Below are positions 9,126 to 52,353 of a stretch of 64,000 nt of DNA, piece by piece (within the stretch, counting starts at the first letter, position 1; every line of letters starts with the position of its first letter). The notes beneath the pieces were generated by a model. That model worked only from the letters and a program-made list of their open reading frames with translations. It ran no database searches and was not told where the DNA came from. Source of the DNA: a virus (lineage: Duplodnaviria > Caudoviricetes); IMG/VR virus record IMGVR_UViG_3300037781_000079, positions 6,489 to 70,488 of that record. One strand, 5' to 3'. Made by a program: the position numbers and the translations under genes.

Positions 9126-9146
9126 TTCAGTTAAAGCAATACTTCA

Positions 9147-46781: not shown

Positions 46782-47011
46782 TTTGACTTGCATTTGATCT
46801 GCAATTTAGGCAAAGCCATTGAAAGTCTTTGGAGTAGGATGAAGCTATTGTCGGATCCATCAAGAGATCTTCTGACCATAGATACGCTCATGTGGCACAA
46901 TTCAGAAAGATCCTTTTCATTCAAAGAGTAGTCAGAGCTAATCCTCCGGCAGATGATAGCCACGTCGTCTTGGTTGTAGTCGAAAACGTAGGATACTTCT
47001 TCTCCGTTCAT
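46745..47011 (-). CDS. small HTH-like protein (start MNGEEV)
   Basis: LNEKDLSELCHMSVSMVRRSLDG resembles HTH; ATGA coupling. Confidence 0.5.
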   Translation of the reverse strand: MNGEEVSYVFDYNQDDVAIICRRISSDYSLNEKDLSELCHMSVSMVRRSLDGSDNSFILLQRLSMALPKLQIKCKSKWQRKRSIDTLE

Positions 47012-47649
47012 TTCAAGAGACATGAGATTTCACAGTTCTCAATCCTGCAAGGGTTTTTCTCGATCACCCTTATTTCATTCCTGATTTCTCCAATCCTTGA
47101 CGTGTAGTAGTTCCTCTTGTCACCATCTGCGGCCTCTTGGAATATCATCAGGTTTTCCAATTTCTTTGCGACTCTACGGAGCCTTCTTTCTTTACAACCA
47201 ACCGGCCTGTCATCTGTACTCGGCCAATCAAATCGAACCGATTCAACATCATGCCAAACCATCATAAAGACAGTTCCTGGTGATATGGTCAAAGAGTGGG
47301 CTTTACTCTCTTCTATAGTGTGGTAATCTGATGGCTTGTCAAGAATCACCGTTTCTTCAGCCGTGTTGATCATCATCCTTCCTTTCACCAGGACAATCAT
47401 CTCTTTGGTATCGTGTATGTGCGCCGGGAATATCCCTCCTTCGTGAGACTTGTATATGCAAGCTACAGCATTCCCTTTCCCTTCAATTTGAGATGATTGA
47501 ACTTGGTCAAGCTCTCCTTTCCAGAATGCTGACCATTCCTCCGGGAACGTCCTTATGGAGGCGCTTTCAGGGCTTCCTTTCAGGAATAGGTAATTACTGA
47601 ATCCTCTTTTTGCTACCCTGTACTGATTTTCAAGCTCTTGGTCTACCAT
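47008..47649 (-). CDS. cupin-domain protein
   Basis: GGIFPAHIHDTKEMIVLVKGRMMI...TIEESKAHS cupin motifs. Confidence 0.7.
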   Translation of the reverse strand: MVDQELENQYRVAKRGFSNYLFLKGSPESASIRTFPEEWSAFWKGELDQVQSSQIEGKGNAVACIYKSHEGGIFPAHIHDTKEMIVLVKGRMMINTAEETVILDKPSDYHTIEESKAHSLTISPGTVFMMVWHDVESVRFDWPSTDDRPVGCKERRLRRVAKKLENLMIFQEAADGDKRNYYTSRIGEIRNEIRVIEKNPCRIENCEISCLLK

Positions 47650-48449: not shown

Positions 48450-48935
48450 TTAAAATTCGAACAGCTCGGTTATCACTCCGTCTTCAATCTCAAAGAGACC
48501 AAGAGACTTTGTGGATGAGATCTTGTTGAACCTCACCTTCATACCTTCTTTCGAGTAGAAGTTCTTCACCGTACCCTCGACGTTCTTGATTTCGTCTGTA
48601 ACAACGTAGTGTCGAGCCTTGTCAAAAGCAACACCGTTGTCGTAGATCATTTCAATATCCGTCTTGAATACTCGTTTCTGGCCATCTGCAGAGTCAATTA
48701 TCACATCTTTGTGGATATTGTCTCTGTAGATCTTATCGATAGTCGCCGGATGCTCAGTCGGATTCATCTCTTCGAAAATCGACAGCGATACCGACTCAGC
48801 TTCAGCGTAAGAGGTGCATAACACCGAGATCTCAGCTTTCATATTCTTCATGTTTCCGCTGTCGATATTCAGCTCTTTGATGACCCCTACACATCTATGC
48901 CAGGTTCTTTCTCCTTTTACCAGTTCGCTCATCAC
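48450..48935 (-). CDS. hypothetical protein (161 aa)
   Basis: ORF track, coupled. Confidence 0.7.
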   Translation of the reverse strand: MMSELVKGERTWHRCVGVIKELNIDSGNMKNMKAEISVLCTSYAEAESVSLSIFEEMNPTEHPATIDKIYRDNIHKDVIIDSADGQKRVFKTDIEMIYDNGVAFDKARHYVVTDEIKNVEGTVKNFYSKEGMKVRFNKISSTKSLGLFEIEDGVITELFEF

Positions 48936-49351
48936 ATCTTCATGTTGTCAGCGGTAGGCTCAATCTTATCGCTGTCTGGGTTTTTGCTTTCCGGATACGG
49001 GTTCTCCTCATTCAATCGCTTCAGGTCCATCCCAAGCCACATGATAGCCTCCTGCAGCTTAGTGATTGATAGACTTCTTTCTCGGCTTCCAGGTAGAGGT
49101 TTGAGTCTCTGAAGAATAGCATCCATGTCCTGACGGAGCTCTTTATTGGCTCTCACGTTGTTCAGGTTTCTCGGGACCTTGTGTGGGCTCGTGTACTTCG
49201 GAAGCATGTTCCTCCTCAGTAGTTCGTAATTGTTTCTGGCCGCTTGTTCTGAAGAAAAACCTTCAGAGCTCGATCCAACGATTTCATTGTTCTCAGCCGT
49301 GACCTTCCATCGCCAGTCAGCAGAGCTGTCTTGGTAGAATTCTGTTTCCAT
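48932..49351 (-). CDS. DUF1508 (YegP-like) domain fused to Acb2/Tad1-like helical hairpin
   Basis: FYQDSSADWRWKVTAENNEIVGSSSEGF + GSRERSLSITKLQEAIMWLG. Confidence 0.6.
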   Translation of the reverse strand: METEFYQDSSADWRWKVTAENNEIVGSSSEGFSSEQAARNNYELLRRNMLPKYTSPHKVPRNLNNVRANKELRQDMDAILQRLKPLPGSRERSLSITKLQEAIMWLGMDLKRLNEENPYPESKNPDSDKIEPTADNMKM

Positions 49352-51318: not shown

Positions 51319-51696
51319 TATACAATCGTCCATTTGAACCGACGATCCGCCACGTCGGTATGTAAAAAGGGGCGCTGTGGTACGAAGCACATTAACAGGC
51401 GCTTACTTTTGCCCGTGCACAGGCGTCCTGAGACTATTTTACCCCTTAATTATATCATAAAAATAACCATCTGTCCACTCCAATTGTGGAATATTAAACT
51501 GTATATGTATAAGTTATGAGCTTACCAAATACATCCGCAATAATAGCAGCATGGGGATTTAATACATTCATCCAAACCTAAACACCTCTTGGATGATGTT
51601 GGTAAAATAGGATTGTTCATGGTGTCTTAGTGTTCCACGCCTTGTTTTTCAAAGGAGACCTATTCACTTGTTTGTAATGAATCAGATGGTTATTAG

Positions 51697-51770
51697 TGCG
51701 CCTTGTAGGGCTTGAACCTACGACCTACGGATTATGAGTCCGGTGCTCTAACCAACTGAGCTAAAGGCGC
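51697..51770 (-). tRNA. tRNA with CAT anticodon, probably tRNA-Ile2 (lysidine); CCA not encoded
   Basis: GCGCCTT/AAGGCGC acceptor, D-arm GCTCAGTTGGTTAGAGC, loop CTCATAA, T-loop TTCAAGC; C4-G69/C5-G68 TilS determinants present. Confidence 0.85.
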
Positions 51771-51775
51771 TGAAG

Positions 51776-51849
51776 AGGCCGAGACGGGAATCGAACCCGT
51801 AGCCTTCAGTTTAGGAAACTGATGCTCTATCCTGTTGAGCTACTCGGCC
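51776..51849 (-). tRNA. tRNA-Arg(CCT); CCA not encoded
   Basis: GGCCGAG/CTCGGCC acceptor, TCAGT-TTCCTAA-ACTGA anticodon arm, ACGGG-TTCGATT-CCCGT T-arm. Confidence 0.9.
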
Positions 51850-51909
51850 TTGTCGATAGGGGTTTGGACAGCTCTGCAGAAGCCAACTTCACTCCTCACC
51901 CCTATCTTA

Positions 51910-52353
51910 TTAAAACGGGAGATCATCAGGGTCCTCAACATTCAAATCAGGGCCTGATGGCGTACTGTTTTGTGGCTGAGGCTGCCTTTGTTGACCTCCA
52001 CCTTGGTTTTCACTGTCAGACCTTGAGGAAAGAACCTGAACAGATCCTCCGTATTCAACCTGAACGCTGAATGAGTATCTCTTGTTCCCGCTTTGGTCTT
52101 CATACGATCTTGTTCTCATCTTTCCTTCGACGTAGACAAGAGCTCCTTTTTTCAGGAAGTTATTAAGAGCAACGGCTTGCTTTTCATTCATGACACTTAC
52201 GTTGTGCCATTCGGTTTTCTCTTTCTTGTTGCCATCTCTGTCTTTCCACGACTCGGTTGTGGCTACCGTAAAGTTCAGGATTGCGTATCCGTCACCCTGG
52301 TTCAGCTCGGGGTCTTTCCCGAGGCGCCCCACTATGATTGCTTTGTTGATCAT
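51910..52353 (-). CDS. ssb: single-stranded DNA-binding protein
   Basis: INKAIIVGRLGKDPE...KTEWHNV...VYVEGKMRTRSYED...DDLPF. Confidence 0.95.
   Translation of the reverse strand: MINKAIIVGRLGKDPELNQGDGYAILNFTVATTESWKDRDGNKKEKTEWHNVSVMNEKQAVALNNFLKKGALVYVEGKMRTRSYEDQSGNKRYSFSVQVEYGGSVQVLSSRSDSENQGGGQQRQPQPQNSTPSGPDLNVEDPDDLPF

Follow-up and report, generated by a model that had tools for sequence, protein, structure and literature searches.

A phage protein that joins a DUF1508 domain to a Tad1/Acb2-type hairpin, a candidate two-module counter-defence protein

What might a phage gain by carrying a DUF1508 domain and a Tad1/Acb2-type helical hairpin on one polypeptide? The question is raised by an open reading frame (ORF), P0001, in a virus of the class Caudoviricetes (IMG/VR record IMGVR_UViG_3300037781_000079, 70,488 bp with direct terminal repeats). 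Bases 6489-70488 of the record, a stretch of 64,000 nucleotides, were analysed and are called the window; the coordinates of P0001 and its parts are collected in Table 1. The reading that we favour, and that we consider somewhat better than an even bet, is that P0001 is a two-module counter-defence protein. Its hexameric sponge core of the Tad1/Acb2 type would probably capture cyclic trinucleotides, its tail would build a second site specific to the clade, and three peripheral DUF1508 dimers would form the second module. Domain identities, residue conservation, gene contexts and fusion partners are the observed basis of this reading, and the hexamer, the ligands and the role of DUF1508 are predicted from them.

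The first-pass annotation, made from the letters alone, had described an N-terminal DUF1508/YegP unit and an Acb2/Tad1-like hairpin with the motif SRE..A/S.TKL.EA.MW, fused in one ORF, and all three statements are borne out. In Pfam, DUF1508 (PF07411) covers amino acids (aa) 8-49 and scores 31.9 bits, where the curated cut-off asks for 22 (E 1.2e-7); Acb2_Tad1_hairpin (PF24729) covers aa 64-106 and scores 31.1 bits, where 27 are asked for (E 2.8e-7). The motif, here SRE..S.TKLQEA.MW, spans aa 89-105, a stretch that lines up with the Tad1 hairpin. Searched in six frames, the complete 70.5-kb record yields each family once, both within P0001, with PF24729 at 32.2 bits. The start codon is backed by the starts of two homologs, P0003 (MKLEFYQD) and P0004 (MKTEFYQD), and no Shine-Dalgarno-like sequence precedes it.

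The AlphaFold2 monomer model (mean predicted local distance difference test score, pLDDT, 82) has strands at 2-7, 13-18 and 24-27, a helix at 35-49, a linker at 51-59 with pLDDT below 50, two helices at 61-83 and 90-114 (pLDDT 94-97) and a coil tail at 115-139 of low-to-middling pLDDT. [quoted passage not shown] The hairpin is modelled as two long antiparallel helices with a short loop, a fold that by itself is generic. A search of BFVD gives, at E 8.4e-5, a crAss-like phage protein titled "Acb2/Tad1 hairpin domain-containing protein", together with several DUF1508 proteins of phages, a result that restates the Pfam assignments and adds nothing to them.

The relationship of the hairpin to known sponges is visible in its residues. 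A profile built from 51 module sequences and searched against the PDB has CmTad1 (8KBB) as its best match, at E 5.7e-6; the E-values for CbTad1 and Acb2 homolog 43 (9PTQ) are 0.39 and 0.76. The register of the CmTad1 alignment is fixed, since each of the 11 residues of CmTad1 that Li et al. (10.1101/2023.11.15.567273) name agrees with the 8KBB chain once the numbering is shifted by 10. In this register R90, T97, K98, Q100, E101, M104 and W105 of P0001 are identical to R88, T95, K96, Q98, E99, M102 and W103 of CmTad1. These seven, together with K106, make the contacts between dimers in the D3 hexamer of Tad1 (10.1101/2023.11.15.567273), so that seven of the eight hexamer-interface residues are kept; the exception is K106, which is replaced by M108. 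In Tad1, R88 and T95 from neighbouring protomers also hold the three phosphates of cA3 or cAAG, and their mutation abolishes binding (10.1101/2023.11.15.567273). The equivalent R90 and T97 lie seven residues apart on the second helix of P0001, and Acb2 of PaMx33 uses R67 and T74 at the identical spacing. In hhalign comparisons of the module profile with single Acb2 sequences, T4 Vs.4 reaches a probability of 31% over 15 columns and JBD67 Acb2 0.7%, and the TKL.EA.MW motif is the sole part aligned.

The C-terminal part of P0001 belongs to a clade of its own. Among 5.8 billion proteins searched there are 3,318 matches in the near length range, nearly all of them spanning only aa ~62-139 at 60-77% identity. 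When near-length members are listed as 90%-identity clusters, the module begins within the first 15 aa in 92 of 119, which are stand-alone proteins of ~80 aa, and it follows that the module functions on its own. The clade, of about 3,300 clusters, is a very large group of mostly stand-alone ~80-aa phage proteins, mainly of Bacteroidota phages. Stand-alone members are present in named or cultured phages, among them Bacteroides phage BK735P4, Tenacibaculum phage Gundel_1 and crAss-like phages. Species-representative genomes contain the module in 35 metagenome-assembled genomes (MAGs) or genomes, mostly of Bacteroidota and also of Verrucomicrobiota, Planctomycetota, Clostridia and others, at 49-77% identity. 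No experimental study of this clade was found in the literature searched.

Family alignments show where the constraint lies. Invariant or near-invariant positions are K70, R73, D77, Q81 and K84 in helix A; S89-R-E-R92, which spans the loop and the beginning of helix B; T97, K98, Q100, E101, M104-W-L-G-M-D109 and R112 in helix B; and N117-P-Y-P120, S122, P125 and P132-T-A-D135 in the tail. R90, T97, Q100, M104 and W105 are invariant, the R90/T97 pair in all 49 and 51 members of two alignments. Judged from these alignments, the NPYP...PTADGL tail is a hallmark of the entire clade and not peculiar to P0001. The first-pass annotation had remarked on a "different tail" and had seen in the fusion a possible sponge with new ligand specificity or with a second module. 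The tail is no distinguishing mark of P0001: it is typical of a very large clade that Pfam already classifies, so it offers no ground for a specificity peculiar to this gene. Some members have an extra domain between helix B and the tail and nonetheless retain the tail motif; this persistence behind inserted domains speaks for a functional tail.

Several architectures in the clade deserve separate record. In P0158, P0175, P0186, P0201, P0161 and P0236, whole domains of 40-60 aa stand between helix B and the NPYP...PTADGL tail, one kind with a TEFKNFRGD..MP...W.AAV motif and another rich in cysteine (CPCC...C.C). P0234, P0265 and P0267 have a module that lacks the SRER motif and keeps the tail, followed by a second, tail-less hairpin ending in MWLGMELGR, a layout that resembles two protomers merged into one chain. 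The natural two-module tandem P0002, folded as one chain, gives no confident packing (predicted TM score 0.41, tails with pLDDT below 55), and its near-identical repeats are possibly an assembly artefact.

The complete two-domain architecture of P0001 is found in three sequences in all: P0001, P0003 (58% identity, on a 950-bp contig) and P0004 (50% identity). Among representatives of 50%-identity clusters of 1.84 billion proteins, one per cluster, P0004 is the one protein whose alignment takes in both domains. It occurs on three marine contigs (L005, L006 and L007), where a same-strand Tad3 gene (PF25185, 77.9 bits) is found directly downstream; Tad3 inhibits the TIR protein of Thoeris directly. 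The Tad3-domain protein (L005:4765-5361) has 198 aa, with Tad3 N-terminal and an extra ~70 aa at the C-terminus, and a C5 cytosine DNA methylase gene is convergent to it. In Gundel_1 (MT732474.1 71659-72798; L046:2441-3580) three consecutive genes constitute a sponge cassette. Gundel1_107 is a stand-alone NPYP-tail module and a 63% identical ortholog; Gundel1_108 is Tad2-like (93.2 bits); and Gundel1_109, of 179 aa, has an N-domain of ~100 aa and, C-terminal to it, a Sequestin domain (PF21825, 57.2 bits). The annotations of the three genes read hypothetical or DUF2829. Home-made profiles from 1-5 seeds, which are weak, place a Sequestin-like ORF immediately 3' of the module at two MAG loci and detect a Sequestin-module fusion at one.

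Fusion partners point in the same direction as these neighbours. Among 100 extended family members the partners are Sequestin (7), DUF1508 (3), RyR (2), and Tad2-like, WDGH and DUF6062 (1 each); Sequestin fusions include P0040, P0159 and P0190, and the Tad2-like fusion is P0210. P0018, P0203 and others carry RyR (55 bits), WDGH, DUF6062 or one of many N-terminal domains that have no Pfam family. The fusions of Sequestin to Tad2 and Acb4 were what led to its discovery, and its sequestration of 3'cADPR was demonstrated; the joining of one sponge domain to another is a pattern with experimental validation (10.1101/2025.07.12.664507). Hadary et al. arrived at 9,141 Acb2 homologs and put those fused to PF21825 aside (10.1101/2025.08.24.671296), so that PF21825-Acb2 fusions are known but unstudied. 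Taken as sequence evidence, gene context and fusion partners point to anti-defence. The anti-defence role proposed in the first-pass annotation is thus supported by conserved residues and gene context, with the ligand and the role of DUF1508 putative. Its claim of novelty stands for the DUF1508 fusion, which is unusual, and fails for the sponge part, which is of a known kind. What is new here is DUF1508 as a partner, plus an uncharacterised clade; the kind of sponge and the principle of sponge fusion are known.

The DUF1508 half has its nearest relative outside the fusions in P0263, a chromosomal tandem DUF1508 protein, each half of which is 49-50% identical to the N-domain of P0001. P0263 (L047:5001-5309) is encoded on a contig with Bacteroidota-type genes, among them a type IX secretion system (T9SS) sorting domain and a SusC-like gene. 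By this resemblance the phage N-domain has the look of half a YegP captured from a host. G+C is alike in both parts of the gene (0.46 and 0.48), so any capture was not recent. A word-index search with aa 1-55 returned only the query, and a pattern scan of IMG/VR with the N-domain alignment gave no further relative, while DUF1508 alone is present in many phages. Single DUF1508 domains homodimerise (6Q2Z) and tandem ones form pseudo-dimers (2K8E). Such pseudo-dimers have been likened to the PC4/Whirly single-strand binders and occur in the sensor position of Menshen NsnA (PMC12065111). DUF1508 is also found on Bub ubiquitin-like proteins, and yegP genes lie downstream of the immune regulators capK/capS in 57 loci (PMC13373217). 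No functional study of YegP/DUF1508 was found in the literature searched; the sponge papers among it do not mention DUF1508, and its fusion to the hairpin is not described there.

These features suggest how P0001 could work. The C-terminal 78 aa, of the Acb2/Tad1 hairpin superfamily, would assemble into a D3 hexamer like those of Tad1 and Acb2, built from three dimers. The phosphates of a cyclic trinucleotide of the cA3 or cAAG type made by CBASS would be gripped by R90 from one protomer and T97 from a second, so that two pockets on the three-fold axis would keep the signal away from the host effector. The invariant tail (NPYP...PTAD) and the basic helix A residues K70, R73 and K84 would probably form a second, clade-specific pocket or a lid. 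DUF1508, on its flexible linker, would probably pair across the two-fold axes, because solved single DUF1508 domains are homodimers, and three YegP-like pseudo-dimers would then stand outside the hexamer. DUF1508 occupies the position taken by the Sequestin and Tad2 sponge domains in other members, and is therefore most likely a second, independent counter-defence module. It could bind a small ligand or nucleic acid, or it could imitate a DUF1508 protein of the host.

Several points weigh against this reading. The hexamer and the ligand binding are carried over to the clade by sequence comparison. The Arg/Thr pair is necessary but not sufficient for cA3 binding, as T4 Acb2 D61R still fails to bind cA3, and its presence is no proof. 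Neither of the known second pockets is kept. N92, R109 and R113 of CbTad1, which belong to its gcADPR and 2'3'-cGAMP site, are replaced by R92, D109 and L113 in P0001 (F82 is not reliably placeable), and the N-terminal segment of Acb2 with Y11 and K26 (PaMx33) has no counterpart in the module, stand-alone members having ~28 residues before the Arg and Acb2 ~60. The monomer fold does not single out Tad1 or Acb2, because a two-helix hairpin fits hundreds of unrelated proteins equally well, and many unrelated two-helix proteins are matched at Z 6-7.5 (Foldseek and VIA-align, wide search and second look, PDB). In the Foldseek search of the PDB the Tad1 chains appear weakly, at E 0.25-0.9, and Acb2 is not among the listed matches; whole-chain alignment to Tad1 chains gives TM 0.25-0.31 with rmsd above 20 A. 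The module, 49-77% identical across phyla, is unusually conserved for a counter-defence protein, a degree of conservation that a sponge for an unchanging small molecule could show. The stand-alone gene of the crAss-like phage cr111_1 has genes of nucleotide metabolism and replication around it. Finally, Tad2, Tad3 and Sequestin genes were not found in the phage's own genome, Tad3 by a search with the Pfam hidden Markov model (HMM) and all three by home-made profiles of 1-5 seeds each, which are weak.

The same observations can be arranged otherwise. The hairpin could be mainly a hexamerisation scaffold that displays, in six copies, N-terminal effector domains of various kinds (DUF1508, RyR, Sequestin, Tad2 and others), with the activity of P0001 residing in DUF1508 alone. 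The residues common with Tad1 are largely interface residues, as a scaffold would have them, and many unrelated N-terminal domains do stand on this one module, with at least 40 aa before it in 73 of the 131 listed 50%-identity representatives. The less biased 90%-identity list, however, consists largely of stand-alone proteins, and hence the module is functional by itself; a scaffold leaves the invariant tail and helix A's basic residues unexplained; and the Arg and Thr are ligand contacts in Tad1 besides being interface residues. We hold this arrangement to be improbable. Phage DNA metabolism or regulation, with no counter-defence role, is the explanation to which we give least credence. Here, for example, a DUF1508 dimer, as a single-strand nucleic-acid binder similar to PC4/Whirly folds, would ride on a coiled hairpin oligomer. 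This explanation would suit the position of the gene downstream of SSB and YopX genes, in the replication/accessory arm, the place of the cr111_1 module between nrdD and dUTPase/DNA polymerase, the comparison of DUF1508 pseudo-dimers with PC4/Whirly folds and the very high conservation of the module across phyla. It accords poorly with the Pfam membership, the conserved ligand residues, the Tad2, Tad3 and Sequestin neighbours and the fusions to sponges, and position says little, since accessory counter-defence genes are commonly located in early or replication regions.

Two further proposals turn on the DUF1508 domain. As a captured host YegP-type domain it could act as a decoy or dominant-negative partner of host DUF1508 stress or defence proteins, with the hexamer providing avidity. 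The identity to both halves of P0263, the homodimerisation of single domains and the host-side occurrences in NsnA sensor positions, on Bub proteins and after capK/capS agree with such mimicry. DUF1508 is nevertheless widespread in phages and cells without known activity, and the fusion is too rare for a co-occurrence argument, so that this proposal too seems improbable to us. A broader version, which we regard as unlikely, makes DUF1508/YegP itself a player in the phage-defence conflict. Half of a host YegP would have been copied and six copies of it tethered to a sponge hexamer. The copies would then form a new small-ligand sponge, in keeping with the fusion logic by which Sequestin came to light, or a decoy poisoning immune or stress proteins of the host that contain DUF1508 (Menshen NsnA, Bub ubiquitin-like proteins or the capK/capS-controlled yegP). 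The two-module counter-defence protein with a Tad1/Acb2-type sponge core remains the reading that we prefer.

In the window, P0001 lies within a run of small same-strand accessory genes downstream of the SSB gene (51910-52353) and a YopX gene, a placement that also agrees with the preferred reading. The fusion gene and the ORF of ~160 aa that follows it are in the same operon and are probably translationally coupled. The downstream product matches DUF4494 and YolD in Pfam, both below threshold, and its homolog was not found at the locus of the marine relative P0004. A 213-aa protein (47008-47649, minus strand) has cupin matches below the cut-off and a Cys-containing tail at its end. It is conserved beside the fusion gene in the marine relative, where the cupin protein near P0004 is its homolog (32% identity, E 1e-39). 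Between the SSB gene and the first gene of the small accessory run, ~520 bp without a long ORF (51391-51909) may be a promoter or regulatory region. PADLOC gave no match. Among public sequencing runs a full DNA match is found only in one pond metagenome, which may be the source sample, and no RNA run is listed.

Table 1. Positions of P0001, its parts and the adjoining gene in the window.
Feature	Coordinates	Strand	Basis or remarks
Whole ORF P0001, 139 aa and stop	48932..49351	-	ATG start, TGA stop; same two domains in P0003 and P0004
DUF1508/YegP-like domain, aa 1-49, three strands and one helix	49205..49351	-	Pfam; pLDDT >90; likeness to 3BID and 6Q2Z; identity to P0263
Linker, aa 50-60, probably flexible	49172..49204	-	pLDDT <50 for aa 51-59; the three fusion proteins differ in its length and sequence
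Acb2/Tad1-type helical hairpin, aa 61-114 (helix A 61-83, loop PLPGS, helix B 90-114)	49010..49171	-	Pfam; profile match to CmTad1; pLDDT 94-97
R90 to T97, equivalents of cyclic-trinucleotide phosphate ligands	49061..49084	-	Alignment to CmTad1 R88/T95, CbTad1 R90/T97 and PaMx33 Acb2 R67/T74; codons checked
Family-specific C-terminal tail, aa 115-139, with invariant N117-P-Y-P120, S122 and P132-T-A-D135	48935..49009	-	Family conservation
Downstream ORF, ~160 aa	48450..48932	-	ATG overlaps the stop of the fusion gene (TGATG)

The NPYP...PTADGL clade is very large and unusually conserved, and its members come from phage DNA associated with Bacteroidota, Verrucomicrobiota, Planctomycetota and Clostridia. 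Its conserved Arg/Thr pair predicts cyclic-trinucleotide capture, and its invariant tail predicts a second pocket so far undescribed. Sponge fusion has already exposed one new sponge family, Sequestin, and by the same logic DUF1508, RyR and several unnamed domains become candidates. The function of DUF1508/YegP is an old puzzle that recurs beside bacterial immune operons, and a phage copy on a sponge offers a cheap handle on what DUF1508 binds. If DUF1508 does act in the phage-defence conflict, this would be the first function for a domain family with structures solved since 2007.

Compared with known systems, P0001 is most like Tad1 (CmTad1, 8KBB-8KBD; CbTad1, 7UAV, 7UAW and 8KBE), with which it shares the helical hairpin, seven of eight interface residues, both phosphate ligands of cA3 and the order of domains, in which a beta-rich N-domain is followed by the hairpin and a C-terminal tail or lid. 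It differs in that its N-domain is DUF1508, by Pfam and by fold, on a variable linker and not the antiparallel beta-sheet domain that in Tad1 helps to form the gcADPR pocket, and in that its tail is longer and has its own invariant NPYP...PTAD motif. With Acb2 (PaMx33 and JBD67 Acb2, T4 Vs.4, Acb2_43 9PTQ) it has the Pfam hairpin family in common. T4 Vs.4 also shares the T-K-L-x-E-A-x-M-W motif, and the 76-aa Acb2_43 matches the stand-alone ~80-aa clade members in size and two-helix plan, whereas the cyclic-dinucleotide-binding Y11/K26 segment is missing from P0001 and sequence similarity to Acb2 chains is marginal. Stand-alone clade members, Gundel1_107 of Gundel_1 and gp_23278 of the crAss-like phage cr111_1, are 52-64% identical to P0001 over aa 46-139 or 65-139 and have its invariant residues and tail; they are without DUF1508 and are annotated just as hypothetical proteins. 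YegP/UPF0339 proteins (E. coli YegP 2K8E, NMB1088 3BID, HVO_2922 6Q2Z) agree with the N-domain in fold and Pfam family. Cellular forms are single, tandem or in long arrays, whereas P0001 has a single repeat fused to a phage hairpin. The sponge-sponge fusions (Acb4-Tad2 of Pasteurella phage Pm86, and Sequestin/PF21825 with Tad2 or Acb4) likewise join a known sponge module and a second small phage domain in one polypeptide, and P0001 departs from them in having as its partner DUF1508, a domain with no known counter-defence activity.

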